49,291 bases of DNA from a virus (Duplodnaviria > Heunggongvirae > Uroviricota > Caudoviricetes > Demerecviridae): the IMG/VR virus record IMGVR_UViG_2757320985_000001; one strand, written 5' to 3'. Positions 38,909 to 45,139 of the stretch are shown in pieces. Numbering within the stretch: the first letter of the stretch is position 1; every line of letters begins with the position of its first letter. The position numbers and the translations under genes are program-made. Below the pieces are notes generated by a model. It had not been told where the DNA came from, searched no databases, and worked only from the letters and a program-made list of their open reading frames with translations.

Positions 38909-39146
38909 CTTTGTAGCTATCTTCATTATCGGGGTACTTGCGGGAATCTTCGGAACACTCGGGGCTATTAACAAACATCGTGAATATATTGCGGTGGTAT
39001 CGCGAGAGCTTTCGGAAAGAGAGCGGAAGTTTGCGGAGAAACGGGAGGAGTTTGAGCGAGAGTGGTCGGATGGATCTCGGGCGTCGCGGAGGAGATTTCG
39101 TATGTCAGAATCAGGAGACAAGCCGGTAGACAGGAGAAGCTCATGA
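38901..39146 (+). CDS. Small membrane protein (81 aa)
   Basis: N-terminal hydrophobic helix plus charged tail; GAGGGA RBS. Confidence 0.72.
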   Translation: MFSFVAIFIIGVLAGIFGTLGAINKHREYIAVVSRELSERERKFAEKREEFEREWSDGSRASRRRFRMSESGDKPVDRRSS

Positions 39147-39358
39147 AAGAATTCGGGCGGTTTTTCGGGGAGTTTGAGATAACCCAAGAAGAACTCGAAA
39201 AGATGGGCATCACCCAAGAGATGTTACAAGTTTTTCCTAAGTCTTCGGAAATTCCAGAAGGATTTATGAGATTTGATGAAGCTATTGAGTACATCAATAA
39301 TCTTGTTAAGACTGACCCTCTATGGCAGTCCATTCTCAAGCAGTCAGTCCGTAAATAG
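39143..39358 (+). CDS. Hypothetical protein (71 aa; start corrected to ATG 39143)
   Basis: AGGAG at 39132; ATGA overlap with the preceding stop. Confidence 0.7.
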   Translation: MKEFGRFFGEFEITQEELEKMGITQEMLQVFPKSSEIPEGFMRFDEAIEYINNLVKTDPLWQSILKQSVRK

Positions 39359-39516: not shown

Positions 39517-40251
39517 TTAGGCAACTTTTAATTTATCAATGAATTGTTGCGGTGTGGTACTATATTCCGCGCGTTCTTCCTCGGTCATACCTTCCCAACA
39601 CATTTTTAAACGTTCGGCTAGGAATTGATAATCGTTATCATCATCAAGCGATTCATCAATAAAGGTTTCACCGATCAATGTTACGCCGATTGATAGGATA
39701 TCGTTAACGGCTTGAGCGTCCAGCGTTTTAAATCCAGCACTTGCCGCCGCTGATAATACACCTTTATGATCATCAATCATCGTAAAATCAGCGTTAGGAT
39801 ATAGCTGTTTAAACAGTTCAAAGTAATAAGACTTATATACAGCGTCTTTGCTGTGATATATTTCGCTAACCTTACCCGCTTCAAAGTATTTATGTAATGT
39901 ATCGCGGGAAAATACGCGAATATTACTATTTCCGCGCCCTCTTAGACTTTGTTTACGCAAGAAATAATAATCAGATTTACCCATTAAGCGAGCGGTACAA
40001 ATAAGGTTTAAGGTATTGGGATCATTCATACATTGGCGCATATATTCAACCAATGGCAATAAAGAATCCTGCATAATTAAATCATGCTTGCAGGCTTCGC
40101 GGGAATATTTATTTAAATCTAAATTCCCATTATCATCAAAACAAGGCCCGACACGGTGCATTGAGTTAATGATTGTACCGTCTAAATCCCAAATCATAAC
40201 GCGGGAAATATGCGGGAAAGTGCGGGTAATATTCATATTGACTTGATTCAT
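39517..40251 (-). CDS. dmp: Deoxynucleoside-5'-monophosphatase (HAD family)
   Basis: 244 aa; HAD motif I WDLDGT and IDD motif; first pre-early gene in T5. Confidence 0.92.
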   Translation of the reverse strand: MNQVNMNITRTFPHISRVMIWDLDGTIINSMHRVGPCFDDNGNLDLNKYSREACKHDLIMQDSLLPLVEYMRQCMNDPNTLNLICTARLMGKSDYYFLRKQSLRGRGNSNIRVFSRDTLHKYFEAGKVSEIYHSKDAVYKSYYFELFKQLYPNADFTMIDDHKGVLSAAASAGFKTLDAQAVNDILSIGVTLIGETFIDESLDDDNDYQFLAERLKMCWEGMTEEERAEYSTTPQQFIDKLKVA

Positions 40252-40338
40252 TTGTTACATTCTCCATTTAAGGGATTTAGGTTAATTCAATCTTGCCAGC
40301 TAATTATATTAGATTAGCTGGCAATGTTCAATTAACTA

Positions 40339-40731
40339 TTAGAACGCCAGACCAAAAGCGAGAGCATCGGCGATAAAGCTAAGATCTTCACCATGTACGC
40401 TAGAGCGAATCCCCGCGCAAGTGTAAACCATCGCGCTAGCTTCGGGATTGCAGACCGGACACGGCTTAACAACTGCAAACGCTAGACCGGATTTAAGCGC
40501 ATCAATAATAATTGTTTGCACTGTCAAAGTATCAGCGTAAACGCCTTTTGCTTTTGTATGGCTTGCCACTTTGCCGGTATCATAAGCAAAGGTAGTAACC
40601 TGCAAAGCGTCGTTATAATTCAGCAAATCGAAATTAACTTGCCCCGCCTCGACGTGATAACGTTCGCCATTAGAATAAACTAGAACGATGGAAGAAGTAG
40701 CACGATCAAAAGGAATGTTTTGGTTTTTCAT
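40339..40731 (-). CDS. Pre-early hypothetical protein (130 aa)
   Basis: GGAG RBS; T5 synteny. Confidence 0.8.
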   Translation of the reverse strand: MKNQNIPFDRATSSIVLVYSNGERYHVEAGQVNFDLLNYNDALQVTTFAYDTGKVASHTKAKGVYADTLTVQTIIIDALKSGLAFAVVKPCPVCNPEASAMVYTCAGIRSSVHGEDLSFIADALAFGLAF

Positions 40732-40763
40732 GTTTATGACTCCAGATTATTTAATTACGGGAT

Positions 40764-41042
40764 TTATTGAAAAAATACATTTAAAGATAAATCAGTTTTA
40801 CGAAAATATGTTTCGTCGCCGTCTTTCCTTTCTTGATTAAGGTAATCGCCTGTCATTACCTGAATAGAATCTTTTCCGAAAAAGATCATATTTTCGCCAA
40901 TATTACTATCCCATACGGCGTACATTCCCGCGTACATTCCACGGGTAACTAAATAAACGCAACTATCAAAAGACATTTCAGACCATGCAATATCTTCTAA
41001 ACAATTGCTATCAGGGATAGATATATTAATTTTACTAGCCAT
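40764..41042 (-). CDS. Pre-early hypothetical protein (92 aa)
   Basis: ORF between A1 and the 130-aa gene; AAGG RBS. Confidence 0.7.
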   Translation of the reverse strand: MASKINISIPDSNCLEDIAWSEMSFDSCVYLVTRGMYAGMYAVWDSNIGENMIFFGKDSIQVMTGDYLNQERKDGDETYFRKTDLSLNVFFQ

Positions 41043-41094
41043 TTAATAAACCTTTTATTAATGGCGGTATATTTCAACCGCCGATTAAATTTAA

Positions 41095-42759
41095 TTATGC
41101 AAAGAATTTACCGTTTTTGAAATCAATCAAAGTACGTTGCCCGTTTGCATAGGTAATTAAATGCGTTTGCGTCCAGCTTGACGCGCCCACGTTGTAGCCC
41201 ATATCAAGGGAACCAGCAACGCCAGCGGTATAAACGCCGCCGTAAATGCTAGCCGTGTGAGTGTGACCAGTGTTAAGGCGTCCCAACTTTTTAAACTGCT
41301 TAGGATTGCCACGACTGCCGTTAATGCCATTGTGACCATGTACGCCGCACTCAATGCCCGCGATTTTAAACGACTGGTCAGTAGTCAGGAATATGGCGTT
41401 AAATTCGCAACCTGCGACATTACGCAAGGCGTAATCTAACACGTTAAACGTTTCGTCACGTTCACCGATTGCGGCGTAAATCGCAGCATTCAGGCGGTGA
41501 TATAGTTCGGCGTTTGCGGGATCATCCTTAATGTTAGCGTTACGATCATCAAGCCAGCGTGAAAGCGCTAAATCATGGTTTGATTCCACAATGATTGTTT
41601 GAGAGAAATCACGCTCCATAGACTCTAAAACGCGTCCAGTGTCGATAAGATCATCTAAAACCTTGTCACGTCCGGCGGCGTACTGTTTAGCAAGGAATAC
41701 ACCACTTGCGCGGTTATGATGATTGCGGGATGTAAAATCATGCACATCATGAATAAACTGATATTTCGGCTTGAGAATATCAAGCAATGAATTTTCACTA
41801 GCCCATGAAGCAACGGCACATTCATCATCTAATTTTTCGGCGTGAATATCGCCATATTGCAAGCCTAAAACGTGTCCAGACGTTTCAAAACATCCGGTAG
41901 CGGTAGCGCAAATATTCAAATCATAAAACATTCCGCTTTCGTCCATTGTTTCAAGCTGGCGCACAAAAAATTCGCCGTCGTCGTCAAACTCCACCAGCAA
42001 AGCGCCGAAATTATGCAGCGCCTCGGCTTTTTGACCTGCTTTCTGCTGAATGTAGTTTTTAAGCGTAGCCGTTCCGGTTGAATACATACGGCGCACAATT
42101 TCACCTTTTAACGCTGGTACACTTTCAGCGGTGATTTTAGCGTGACCGATTGCCAGCCCTTCAATATTTAAAGTCGTGGCGGTTTCTGCAAAACCTGTAA
42201 GCGGATAATCTGCCGTTGGTAATGCGTTAATTTCAGCCATGAAAGCAAAGCGGCGATTATTTAGGAAAACGTTTTTCTCGCAGATATATTTATTAAATGC
42301 GGGATCATATTTAATCCCTTCGTTACCTTCCCCATTCTGGAAGCCGTTTTTATTGTAAATGAATTTACTAACCAGCAATTCAGCGCCGATATAATCAGCG
42401 AACTTTTCCAGACTTGCTAAAAAGTTTTTATGCGGGAAAGTGTTATTTTGAATCGACGTTAGAATAAAACGGCGACCGGATTTAACTTCCCATTGTTCAA
42501 CGGTACTAGAAACAATTCCCGCCGCTTCGGGGCGATCATCATTTTTAATCGCCTTTTCAGCTTTTGCCGCTTTCGGTTTCGCTGGCTTATTTGCTTCCAG
42601 CCAGTCACAAATTGCGGTCGAATGTTTCGGCGTATCATAAACAGCTTTTGAAATATCGTCGCAAACTTCCAATTTAGTAGCGCGTAAACGCTTACCATAG
42701 AAATTAAAATCAGCGGCCATTTTCAAAATTTGAGCTTGTTTTTCTGCGGAAATATTCAT
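41095..42759 (-). CDS. A1: A1 protein (host DNA degradation / second-step transfer; metallophosphoesterase-fold nuclease)
   Basis: 554 aa; GDIH, DVHD, SNHD, HGH and GHTH metal-binding motifs; T5 position and size. Confidence 0.92.
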   Translation of the reverse strand: MNISAEKQAQILKMAADFNFYGKRLRATKLEVCDDISKAVYDTPKHSTAICDWLEANKPAKPKAAKAEKAIKNDDRPEAAGIVSSTVEQWEVKSGRRFILTSIQNNTFPHKNFLASLEKFADYIGAELLVSKFIYNKNGFQNGEGNEGIKYDPAFNKYICEKNVFLNNRRFAFMAEINALPTADYPLTGFAETATTLNIEGLAIGHAKITAESVPALKGEIVRRMYSTGTATLKNYIQQKAGQKAEALHNFGALLVEFDDDGEFFVRQLETMDESGMFYDLNICATATGCFETSGHVLGLQYGDIHAEKLDDECAVASWASENSLLDILKPKYQFIHDVHDFTSRNHHNRASGVFLAKQYAAGRDKVLDDLIDTGRVLESMERDFSQTIIVESNHDLALSRWLDDRNANIKDDPANAELYHRLNAAIYAAIGERDETFNVLDYALRNVAGCEFNAIFLTTDQSFKIAGIECGVHGHNGINGSRGNPKQFKKLGRLNTGHTHTASIYGGVYTAGVAGSLDMGYNVGASSWTQTHLITYANGQRTLIDFKNGKFFA

Positions 42760-42867
42760 AACTAAATCAACTCCTATAAAGGGATAAATATTAATACTGG
42801 CAATATTGCCAAATATAACGCCTTGCCTGAAGTGAGGACAATTTAAAAGGCGTTATAATTTGCAATA

Positions 42868-43095
42868 TTATTCTAGAATTGGCATAAGACTAGAACTAAA
42901 CCCGCAACTAATAGCCAGCGTTAAAAATATAATCGCCAGATATTTTTGTTTATTAGCTTGACGTTTAAACATATCAGCGGCATAAGCTGAATTAATGCCG
43001 ATAATAGAGATTATATATTTGCCGTAATTAAATATAAATATAGCGGCAACTATAAATAAACCTAAAATAAACGCTTCACTAGGAAAGAAGATCAT
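42868..43095 (-). CDS. Pre-early membrane protein (75 aa; start corrected to ATG 43095)
   Basis: Two hydrophobic segments; GGAG 9 nt upstream; lies between A2 and A1. Confidence 0.75.
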   Translation of the reverse strand: MIFFPSEAFILGLFIVAAIFIFNYGKYIISIIGINSAYAADMFKRQANKQKYLAIIFLTLAISCGFSSSLMPILE

Positions 43096-43152
43096 TTTAA
43101 TAACTCCGGTCAAGGGGAATTATAGCGGGGAATATTCCCCGCTAATTAGAAT

Positions 43153-43569
43153 TTATTCACCTGCGGCCTGTTTTACTTCCTCCGCTACGCCTAACAATTG
43201 CGCTACGGCTTCCAGCGTTTCCAGTTTTGCACTTTCCAAACTTGCCAGATCGTCGGCATCTTTAATAACGCCAGCATCAATGGCATGTTTAGCCATAACG
43301 CGCACATAGTGAGCTTTACGGACACTAGACCCGCCGCCAACTTTACGCGGTTTATCGCTTTTCTGGTAGGCTTTTGCACTGGTCAATTTAGAACGTACAG
43401 AAACAGGACTTGCAGCGCCAACGGCGGCGGCAATTTCTTTTAAGCCGTCAGTGTTAGCAAATTCAATTCCGCTTTTAGCGACCATTTCAGAATACATAGA
43501 AACAGCCTTTTCGGTGTTTTCTTCGTTCCAAGAGAATTTTGCGGTTTTTTCGGTTTTAACGTTAGACAT
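43153..43569 (-). CDS. A2: A2 protein (DNA-binding, second-step transfer; 138 aa, start corrected to ATG 43569)
   Basis: MSNVKTEKTAKFSWNEENT…SVRSKLT sequence of T5 A2 type; GGAG RBS. Confidence 0.9.
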   Translation of the reverse strand: MSNVKTEKTAKFSWNEENTEKAVSMYSEMVAKSGIEFANTDGLKEIAAAVGAASPVSVRSKLTSAKAYQKSDKPRKVGGGSSVRKAHYVRVMAKHAIDAGVIKDADDLASLESAKLETLEAVAQLLGVAEEVKQAAGE

Positions 43570-43793
43570 AATAAATACTCCATTCAATTATTAATTAAGG
43601 GATTATGATTAACTAATGTTAATCGTTATATTGCCCATATTTCAGGGCAATATAAAAGTAACACTAATCATATAAGTTTAAATTGTGTGCCATAACATTG
43701 TTCACACTACATGGTTAATATATCGAAAATCTAACATGAGGCGCTAGCCTTATTTATTTACGCCGATTAAAGGCGCGGGTTAATAATAAGCTA

Positions 43794-44045
43794 TTAGGCG
43801 ATAGCTTGCCATTTATCATCTTTCTGAATGACCTTTACAACGTCGCCAGATTTAACACGGACGGTATAAATCGGCTTACCGTTGTTGCTACGTTCCGTTT
43901 CCGCGTAAACCGCTTCGATTTTATCGAAAGGATCAAGCGCCGCACCTTTAATACGTTCGGCTTTTCCGGTTAATTCATCCGTTTTAGTAACAAAAGGAAT
44001 GAATACAGATTGACCTACTTTCGGCGCGGTAATAACGTTTTGCAT
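43794..44045 (-). CDS. Pre-early hypothetical protein (83 aa)
   Basis: GGAG RBS; T5 synteny. One of the small genes here may be the T5 cell-division inhibitor, but I cannot assign which from sequence alone. Confidence 0.8.
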   Translation of the reverse strand: MQNVITAPKVGQSVFIPFVTKTDELTGKAERIKGAALDPFDKIEAVYAETERSNNGKPIYTVRVKSGDVVKVIQKDDKWQAIA

Positions 44046-44155
44046 TTTTAATACTCCGGTTTATTGGGGGATTATTCCACAATAGCGCCTCGATACTTTG
44101 AAACGCTATTAGATTATAATCCGCTAGGAGTTAGCCTAAACATTACCGTTATCCA

Positions 44156-44170
44156 AATTTTTAAAGAGCA
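44156..44170 (-). promoter_or_regulatory. boxA-like antitermination element (second copy)
   Basis: Minus strand TGCTCTTTAAAAATT(TGGAT); matches the rrn boxA consensus TGCTCTTTAA(C/A)A. Confidence 0.65.
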
Positions 44171-44210
44171 GTTACTACGGGGAACATCTTAAAACCTATC
44201 GGCTAGCGTG

Positions 44211-44429
44211 TCAAGCGTTTTTTAAACTTTTTTCTATTTGATGTGAGTTATATAAATCAATCATTATATTACGCCACACCATTTCCAGACCTTGTTGCTT
44301 GCCTTTCTTGTATTGCTTGAATCTGTATTTTACAGATCGTTGCGCTACTGTCAACAAATTTTTTGTTCTGCTATCTAATGCGCTAGCAGGTTTTGCACTA
44401 ATCACTAAAGCGTTTTTTGATTTGATCAT
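44211..44429 (-). CDS. Pre-early basic hypothetical protein (72 aa), first gene of the leftward operon
   Basis: AAGGA RBS; Lys/Arg-rich; bracketed by a 24-bp inverted repeat. Confidence 0.75.
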   Translation of the reverse strand: MIKSKNALVISAKPASALDSRTKNLLTVAQRSVKYRFKQYKKGKQQGLEMVWRNIMIDLYNSHQIEKSLKNA

Positions 44430-44487
44430 TATCGTCAGTTCCTTATAATATCTAAGTTTACCGCCGATAGGCTTTAAGATGTTCCCT

Positions 44488-44524
44488 AATTTTTAAAGAG
44501 CATGGCGGTTTAAACTTCCCCGCC
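44488..44524 (-). promoter_or_regulatory. Hairpin (boxB-like) plus boxA-like element in the leader
   Basis: Minus strand GGCGG-GGAAGTTTAAA-CCGCC-A-TGCTCTTTAAAAATT. Confidence 0.65.
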
Positions 44525-44569
44525 GTGTAATCTTGCGTTTCGTTTCCGTCCCGCCGTCCTACGAGATAA

Positions 44570-44612
44570 ATAATAGCAAATTGAGAGAAAGAGACAAGCG
44601 TATTTTTGTAAA
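44570..44612 (-). promoter_or_regulatory. Leftward pre-early promoter
   Basis: Minus strand TTTACAAAAATACGC-TTGTCT(44597)-16-TATTAT(44575) with TGn extended -10. Confidence 0.7.
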
Positions 44613-45139
44613 GAAACGTAAAGACAAACGCCACCGCACCACGTCCAGCGGCGCACTAAATTTAATGAAACGGGCGCGCGAATAACACCAAAACAACCAT
44701 TTTAGCAAGTAATTTTTTCATTTATATCTGCTCTAGGGTACTTGACAAAATCTAAAATCCTCGTGGTGAGGTTTTCTCGGTGTACCCCTTATGATTGCCT
44801 ATCTTTTCCTTTGAGGCGCTTAGAATGCGTTACAGAGCGTTTTAGACCCTGTTAATAACTTATACAAAAAGCAAAAATGAAATTTAATGAGTTATCCACT
44901 TGATTTTTCAAAAAAGTATTTTCTGCTGTTATTTTTCATTGACAAATAAGTTTAGACGTGCATTGATTGGTTAGCATACTAACAATCGCTAGGATAATAA
45001 TCACGCTGGTGGATTGTAACAGCCGAAACAGTTAGCAGACTATTAATACTCTAAAAACCTATTAGCCAACTAACTATTTCATATTATATAATATACTTAT
45101 AAATTAAAGAGAAATAATAACTATAAGAAACTATCGGCT

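Follow-up and report, generated by a model that had tools for sequence, protein, structure and literature searches.

Candidate rRNA-type BoxA elements and a covarying long-range helix in the pre-early leader of T5-like bacteriophages

Introduction

The closest described counterparts of the phage leader reported here are the rrn operons, in which boxB, boxA and boxC follow promoter P2 and a second set stands before the 23S gene (PMC10250234, PMC3177189). The boxA element is necessary and sufficient for the complex of NusA, NusB, NusE, NusG, SuhB and S4 (PMC10250234, PMC3177189), and in rrn it is followed by the 5' strand of a 25–40 bp leader–trailer helix that is cleaved by RNase III (PMC10250234). 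NusB–NusE has a dsRNA-binding surface at the 5' end of BoxA (PMC3177189), and a consensus, GYTCTTTAANA, has been drawn from functional BoxA sites (Baniulyte et al. 2017, PMC5725501).

The DNA analysed here, hereafter the window, is a stretch of 49,291 nucleotides (IMG/VR record IMGVR_UViG_2757320985_000001) from a T5-like phage closest to Eps7 (96.8% over 601 bases, with 498 phage records matching). T5 is a classical model phage. Outside rRNA operons, BoxA is reportedly used in the leaders of CRISPR arrays, a use said to have been described by Stringer et al. 2020. An initial annotation of the window proposed that its pre-early leader borrows host rRNA antitermination, and the literature searched here yielded no paper linking T5-like phages with boxA or Nus factors. 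Davison's preprint describes the repeats IRA/IRA' (Repeat Region 1) of this region as conserved and of unknown function, with no mention of boxA or Nus.

Results

Layout of the leader and its operon

The leader is a minus-strand reading in the pre-early (first-step-transfer) region. The promoter, hairpin, boxA, small gene and second boxA that the initial annotation had placed there are all present where it put them, and the features run as follows in the direction of transcription.

44570..44597, minus strand: predicted upstream sigma-70-type promoter, TTGTCT-16-TATTAT, with TG before the -10 (from sequence)
44504..44524, minus strand: boxB-position hairpin, 5-bp stem of GGCGG (44524-44520) and CCGCC (44508-44504), 11-nt loop (from sequence and fold)
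44488..44502, minus strand: boxA 1, TGCTCTTTAAAAATT, core GCTCTTTAAAA at 44501-44491, a perfect match to GYTCTTTAANA
44463..44486, minus strand: 5' arm of the long-range helix, 24 nt, beginning 1 nt after boxA 1 (inverted repeat, fold and covariation)
44211..44429, minus strand: hdi-like cargo gene, 72 aa, homologue of T5 gene 008 (hdi), 68% identical
44354-44327, minus strand: P-H22-like promoter, TTGACA-16-TAAAAT, inside the hdi-like gene (by homology)
44186..44214, minus strand: P-D/E20 homologue, TTGACA-17-TAAGAT, homologue of a mapped T5 promoter
44180..44203, minus strand: 3' arm of the long-range helix, pairing with 44486-44463 with one G.U
44151..44170, minus strand: boxA 2, TGCTCTTTAAAAATTTGGAT, 9 nt past the 3' arm and roughly +9 from the predicted P-D/E20 start, a perfect match to GYTCTTTAANA
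44069..44122, minus strand: covarying 19-bp hairpin in the 5' UTR of the next gene, immediately 5' of the ribosome-binding site (from alignment)
39517..44045, minus strand: A2-A1-dmp operon downstream of the leader, ~5 kb (ORFs and T5 homologues)
44045-43794, minus strand: gene 007 homologue, 83 aa, first operon gene after boxA 2
43569-43153, minus strand: A2
between A2 and A1, minus strand: gene for an 81-aa membrane protein
42759-41095, minus strand: A1
between A1 and dmp, minus strand: genes of 92 aa and 130 aa
40251-39517, minus strand: dmp, at the end of the operon

In the RNA the order is hairpin, one nucleotide, boxA 1, one nucleotide and the 5' arm of the helix; then a ribosome-binding site and the hdi-like gene; and then the 3' arm, nine nucleotides and boxA 2. 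Homologues of T5 genes 008 (hdi), 007, A2, 005, A1 and dmp occur in the region, and the leader does head an operon of ~5 kb that contains A2 and A1, as had been proposed. Untranslated gaps of 134, 165, ~190, 108 and 87 nt (about 30–200 nt overall) lie within the operon, in which a scan for terminators found no strong intrinsic and no demonstrated Rho-dependent one. A2 is a member of a DNA-binding protein family. The 19-bp hairpin at 44069..44122 has changes on both sides at seven pairs, and an Rfam search over 43700–44800 returned no relevant family.

The operon was also said to be transcribed without an N- or Q-like protein, and a PHROG comparison agrees, with zero matches to such a family among ten pre-early proteins. 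A lambda-type nut site was considered for this leader and rejected: the hairpin precedes boxA, and none of the 10 pre-early proteins has an N-like PHROG match.

The two boxA sites

The 15-mer TGCTCTTTAAAAATT occurs exactly twice in the window. GYTCTTTAANA itself is matched three times, against 0.47 matches expected, and 3 of 100 shuffles also reached three. The third match (29318, plus strand) lies antisense inside a 255-aa coding gene, looks like chance and was set aside. The nearest genome compared holds six consensus matches against two for a reversed-pattern control, and a leader context is found at the two leader sites only. The significance of the pair lies mainly in position and deep conservation, not in the count within the window.

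Aligned with the leader and spacer boxA of rrn, both phage copies are rrn-type and stand in rrn order, as the annotation had supposed. In E. coli MG1655 rrnH the leader boxA is TGCTCTTTAACAATTT and the spacer boxA is TGCTCTTTAAAAATCTGGAT; boxA 2 matches the latter at 19 of 20 bases, so that the single-base difference stated in the annotation proves correct. The exact 20-mer of boxA 2 was found in 19 bacterial stretches. Among the contexts checked, it stands between the spacer tRNAs and the 23S rRNA in several gammaproteobacteria, including an Enterobacterales MAG, and ~100 nt upstream of the first CRISPR-array repeat in two Wohlfahrtiimonas genomes. The phage boxA is the same as host rrn and CRISPR-leader sites over 18–20 nt.

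Both sites are on the transcribed strand with a promoter upstream in silico, boxA 2 behind the P-D/E20 homologue and boxA 1 behind the predicted, deeply conserved promoter. In predicted folds boxA is single-stranded, both in the MFE and centroid structures of the 424-nt leader and in 8/9 phage leaders. The distance to the next start codon, all of it 5' UTR, is 58 nt for boxA 1 (hdi-like gene) and ~105 nt for boxA 2 (gene 007). Judged from sequence, it is likely that both sites are functional BoxA elements.

Promoters and the hairpin at the boxB position

Both the -10 of the upstream promoter and the bases transcribed first (TATTATTTATCTCGTAGG) are kept out to the Klebsiella and Vibrio T5-like phages. 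The P-D/E20 homologue is built into the helix: its spacer, -10 and discriminator are the 3' arm, and the stop codon of hdi falls inside its -35 hexamer. Because the 3' arm is the core of this promoter and the P-H22-like promoter lies inside the gene, the long-range helix could form only in transcripts from the upstream promoter. By the order of the sites, the transcripts of all three promoters would carry boxA 2.

A single base (A, 44503) separates the boxB-position hairpin from boxA 1. The hairpin was found in the window, T5, Klebsiella phage Boggle, DU_PP_V, pVp-1, Quinn and rrnH itself; in a comparison of leader folds it was absent or not clear in HS37 and My1. Where present it stands 5' of boxA at a distance of 1–5 nt, the arrangement also seen in rrnH, and in two leaders (L010 and L023) the whole hairpin is flipped with the stem retained. 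A hairpin 5' of boxA fits the dsRNA-binding surface that NusB–NusE presents at the BoxA 5' end. A boxC element (UCUGUGUGGG), unlike in rrn, had no match within two mismatches in 44100–44600.

Conservation across T5-like phages

Conservation of boxA was followed through 39 IMG/VR loci together with GenBank records, and the alignment comprises 31 Markadamsvirinae leaders. Conservation in T5-like genomes, a check that the annotation had named, held for boxA 1, which is present with the hairpin in every Markadamsvirinae leader examined, its core invariant in all 31 aligned, and for a single copy in the Vibrio phages; boxA 2 is absent in Tequintavirus. Across Demerecviridae the conservation of the sites reaches well past that of their flanking sequence. 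Two copies are found in the Epseptimavirus genomes and, in the same layout with diverged flanks, in Klebsiella Sugarlandvirus and the Pectobacterium phages My1 and DU_PP_V. In T5 and every Tequintavirus locus a single copy, boxA 1, is found as CGCTCTTTAAAAATT, and the sequence past P-D/E20 is unrelated. Since boxA 2 is absent there, the P-H22 and P-D/E20 transcripts of Tequintavirus would be without boxA, and since these strong mapped promoters of T5 and Tequintavirus give untagged transcripts, boxA cannot be universally required for A1/A2 expression.

Farther out, a single perfect boxA carrying the TTTGGA extension stands between the promoter and an A2-like gene in the Vibrio T5-like phages pVp-1 and 70E34-1a. 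Their A1 proteins are merely 32–35% identical, and the inverted repeat is absent in the Vibrio phages; a small hairpin accompanies the promoter–boxA stretch in pVp-1. The longest exact word common to the leaders of the window and pVp-1 is the 18-mer GCTCTTTAAAAATTTGGA, and what has been conserved is the boxA consensus exactly, with its AANA, together with the TTTGGA extension. Phage Quinn has a degenerate boxA copy, and at the Shewanella A1 locus a leader boxA was not found. Homologues of gene 007 also occur in other genomic contexts, in Vibrio phage 70E34-1b and Klebsiella phage phi1_175008.

The long-range helix

In the window the helix measures 24 bp, one pair being G.U, and in T5 it reaches 28 bp, the range overall being 24–28 bp. 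At these lengths it lies above the about 20 bp or more of near-perfect dsRNA that marks an RNase III-type substrate. Across the 31-sequence alignment, changes on both sides occur at 5/28 helix pairs, one of them along a pathway from C-G through U.G to U-A. Between My1 and DU_PP_V one pair goes from C-G to U-A by a compensatory change and additional G.U pairs occur, and leader L018 has one extra base in each arm with the register kept. The Klebsiella and Pectobacterium arms are unrelated in sequence to those of the window and retain the pairing. The arms pair with duplex energies of -41 to -51 kcal/mol across eight lineages, versus about -20 for shuffled arms. In the sense-strand fold the helix is closed and boxA 1 free (-112 kcal/mol, z = -5.4), and the antisense fold is less stable. 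What the helix encloses varies by lineage: hdi, a divergent variant of it, hdi with another ORF, or an unrelated 66-aa ORF in My1.

Together these features suggest that the helix is an RNA-level feature. Distinct non-Watson–Crick events on the sense strand of the 31-sequence alignment number eight G.U versus two A.C; the G.U excess (about 12 versus 2 events) is suggestive and could be inflated by strand-biased mutation. A simple inverted duplication fits poorly, because the boxA copies repeat in direct orientation and the arms in inverted orientation. Conservation of the 3' arm would come in part from another cause, since that arm is itself the promoter core. Homogenisation of the inverted repeats at the DNA level is an alternative source of matched arms.

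The motif beyond T5-like phages

Phage T7 has CGCTCTTTAACAATCTGG at record positions 812–829, 63 nt past promoter A3 and before gene 0.3. The RNase III site R0.3 presumably lies between this motif and gene 0.3. The T7 boxA has reportedly been remarked on in the T7 literature; the literature searched here yielded no paper linking T7 with boxA. The extended motif, an 18-mer, is present in at least 93 viral contigs, including T7-like and SP6-like early leaders, and in ten contigs among the matches listed a phage tRNA cluster begins 26–44 nt after it. Because T7 and at least 93 viral contigs share the motif, the T5-like site is best taken as a new case of stand-alone rrn-type BoxA elements.

Discussion

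A host-factor route through the pre-early operon

There is reason to think that a virulent phage could read its pre-early genes with the machinery by which its host reads rRNA. Host NusB–S10 would bind the transcribed boxA sites and, together with NusA, NusG and SuhB, would remodel the RNA polymerase of E. coli or Salmonella into a complex of the rrn kind, which being Rho-resistant and quick in elongation could cross the ~5 kb operon and its untranslated gaps with no phage antiterminator. The 24-bp helix would then serve as an RNA leader–trailer helix around a variable small-gene cassette (hdi in the window), and RNase III would probably cut it; boxA 2 would then equip the polymerase afresh, as is presumed of the rrn spacer boxA. 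The same boxA 2 would also tag transcripts from the P-H22-like and P-D/E20-like promoters. The analysis itself obtained the sequence match, the strand and position of the sites, their deep conservation, a covarying helix, and boxA unpaired in predicted folds; the binding of Nus factors, resistance to Rho, cleavage by RNase III and reloading would follow by analogy with rrn. Taken as a whole, Nus-loaded, Rho-resistant transcription of the A2-A1-dmp operon combined with processing of the helix is an account towards which we lean by a little. Several points weigh on it: T5 has no boxA behind its two strongest mapped pre-early promoters, the promoter of boxA 1 is a predicted one, the scan of the operon gave no clear terminator, boxA can repress (as at suhB), and boxC is absent.

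A more elaborate version, which we offer tentatively and regard as rather doubtful in its entirety, makes of this leader a miniature rrn operon for mRNA. A BoxA-anchored Nus complex might hold the 5' arm at the RNA exit channel, so that the helix closes co-transcriptionally over an exchangeable cassette; RNase III might excise a cassette mRNA stabilised by its paired ends; boxA 2 might re-arm the polymerase; and the spacer-type BoxA (boxA with TTTGGA) might be a general module heading early operons and tRNA arrays in many phage groups.

Other readings of the conserved elements

Conservation of this kind could instead have been maintained by selection on the DNA. The repeats IRA/IRA' might be operators or structural sites, for instance in an A1/A2-dependent shut-off of pre-early transcription, and the A+T-rich boxA might be promoter-proximal DNA or a nucleoid-protein site. 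Such a role would sit well with a 3' arm that is the spacer, -10 and discriminator of P-D/E20, with an A2 protein from a DNA-binding family and an A1 that is reported to dampen pre-early promoters, and with earlier work that lists these elements as conserved DNA repeats of unknown function; gene conversion, moreover, could yield matched changes in the arms. It accounts less well for mismatches strongly biased to G.U on the sense strand, for boxA repeats that are direct where the arms are inverted, for a boxA the same as host rrn and CRISPR-leader sites to 18–20 nt, and for its retention in Vibrio phages without the inverted repeat, and we think it unlikely. A negative role for boxA, as at suhB, we consider slightly less probable still. 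Nus factors repress suhB through a BoxA in its 5' UTR, acting over more than 50 nt (PMC5725501), and the two phage sites are likewise found in 5' UTRs, at 58 and about 105 nt from start codons; a Nus complex hindering translation of the next gene (hdi or 007) would let Rho terminate, and toxic genes would be damped or timed, toxicity being hinted at by reports that hdi and its neighbours are hard to clone. Against this, the place where boxA is most conserved is ahead of the essential A2-A1 in every lineage, Vibrio included; the context is rrn-like (hairpin and boxA, helix, second boxA) and not adjacent to a ribosome-binding site; and T7 and phage tRNA arrays have the motif where read-through is needed.

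The sites might also act in trans, with strong pre-early promoters flooding the cell with BoxA RNA and titrating NusB–S10 off rrn, which would aid host shut-off. In favour of such a decoy, the Epseptimavirus boxA 2 lies at about +9 from the homologue of a strong T5 promoter; but Tequintavirus has no boxA after P-D/E20, Nus factors work in cis on the transcribing polymerase, and for a motif that heads phage tRNA arrays and the T7 early operon protection in cis is the simpler role, so that this explanation appears very improbable. Lowest in our estimation is a leaky intrinsic terminator or attenuator after the upstream promoter, made up of the hairpin and the U-rich boxA 1, with the likeness to boxA incidental. 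A G+C stem is indeed followed within 1–2 nt by UGCUCUUU. The stem, however, has merely 5 bp with a loop of 8–11 nt and was not called by the terminator scan; no such hairpin accompanies boxA 2 or the copies in My1 and HS37; and what is conserved is the exact boxA consensus with AANA and TTTGGA.

Significance

The initial annotation knew of no description of such a leader in T5-like phages, and none was found here; for virulent phages in general the claim of novelty does not carry over, with precedent in T7 and in at least 93 contigs. What appears to be undescribed is the rrn-like arrangement in which a pair of boxA copies flanks a covarying helix, the helix itself spanning a protein-coding cassette and overlapping a promoter. 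If the reading in terms of Nus-dependent antitermination is right, a route that uses host factors only would be a concrete mechanism for quick and complete pre-early transcription by unmodified host polymerase, and nusB, nusE, suhB and rnc would be predicted host dependencies of T5-like phages, many of which are under development for biocontrol of Salmonella, E. coli and Klebsiella. BoxA/Nus regulation, which has long been regarded as peculiar to rRNA and lambda, would then reach the protein-coding operons of virulent phages, and the bracketed cassette would be a compact natural system in which to follow how the rrn antitermination complex promotes long-range RNA pairing.

Comparison with known systems

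Lambda nutL and nutR, like the T5-like leader, are phage sites at which BoxA and host Nus factors modify RNA polymerase (PMC10250234). They differ in that the nut order is boxA–boxB and N is needed, whereas the leader here has its hairpin before boxA, no boxB-like hairpin after it, and no N-like protein found. Closer in one respect are the BoxA elements of CRISPR leaders and of suhB, where a stand-alone BoxA outside rrn recruits host Nus factors without a phage protein; these are chromosomal, however, the CRISPR transcripts are untranslated, and the outcome at suhB is repression (PMC5725501).

T7, likewise virulent, has its rrn-type boxA between an early promoter for host polymerase and its first early gene, and the ATCTGG extension is kept. 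It belongs to an unrelated family and has a single copy, and any processing site there is a local hairpin, with no long-range helix around the gene.

From the E. coli rrn operons the phage leader departs in its cargo, a small protein-coding cassette of about 220–430 nt in place of 16S rRNA, and in a helix whose 3' strand doubles as a promoter core. The helix begins 1 nt after the boxA 15-mer, a gap not longer than that of rrnH. A second boxA past the first helix, as in rrn, is found in the window, the other Epseptimavirus genomes, Sugarlandvirus, My1 and DU_PP_V, and is absent in Tequintavirus. What the phage leader has in common with E. coli rrn is the order of promoter, hairpin and boxA, the boxA consensus, a long helix that closes after the cargo, and a second boxA after that helix.

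BoxA in other viral genomes

The extended boxA 18-mer, GCTCTTTAAMAATTTGGA, occurs in at least 93 viral contigs from IMG/VR (loci L079-L171). T7-like and SP6-like genomes, where the motif lies close to the left end, and prophage-like contigs are both represented among the matches listed. Within the same listed matches, a phage tRNA cluster begins 26-44 nt 3' of the 18-mer at 10 loci, and this proximity suggests that boxA protects untranslated phage tRNA operons. In T7 itself, CGCTCTTTAACAATCTGG is found at record positions 812-829 (L172:413-430), flanked by host promoter A3 on one side and gene 0.3 on the other, and carries no annotation in the RefSeq record.

The exact 20-mer of the second phage boxA is also found in two Wohlfahrtiimonas genomes (L065:3943-3962 and L070:626-645), in both of which it sits ∼100 nt 5' of the first repeat of a CRISPR array.

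Elements surrounding the first boxA

A CGCGCGCCCGTT motif at 44669-44680 (minus strand), ∼100 nt 5' of the predicted leader promoter, is kept in T5 and has an identical copy in Vibrio phage pVp-1 (L049:3062-3073). In two T5-like phages (L010 and L023, ∼1960-1995) the whole hairpin preceding boxA 1 is inverted, such that GGCGGTAAACTTCCCGCC replaces GGCGGGAAGTTTACCGCC; the loop is complemented and the stem retained. A promoter-like site lies on the opposite strand:

44422-44449, plus strand: TTGATC-16-TATAAT, overlapping the hdi ribosome-binding site

This site is oriented back across boxA 1 and the 5' arm of the long-range helix. It may act as an antisense promoter, or it may be a by-product of TATAAGGA being conserved.

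Hairpins within and after the operon

Two further features lie on the minus strand:

44069-44122, minus strand: hairpin with a 19-bp stem, lying in the gene 007 homologue's 5' UTR immediately upstream of the ribosome-binding site
42797-42812, minus strand: palindrome TTGGCAATATTGCCA with an A/T-rich tail after it, intergenic and immediately 5' of A1

The palindrome, which lies within the operon, is a weak hairpin of the terminator-like or processing type. Downstream of dmp, the sense strand is markedly C-rich and G-poor (38980-39180, minus strand; maximum of 37 C versus 11 G per 80 nt), accompanied by a small hairpin and T-run at 39216-39204, and this C-rich stretch may be a Rho-utilisation site marking the operon end.

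The 19-bp hairpin differs among the T5-like phages compared by both-side changes at seven pairs, and Vibrio phages carry a similarly long hairpin in the corresponding position. Like T7 R0.3, an RNase III site located between the T7 boxA and gene 0.3, the 19-bp hairpin may be a target of RNase III or may stabilise the mRNA.
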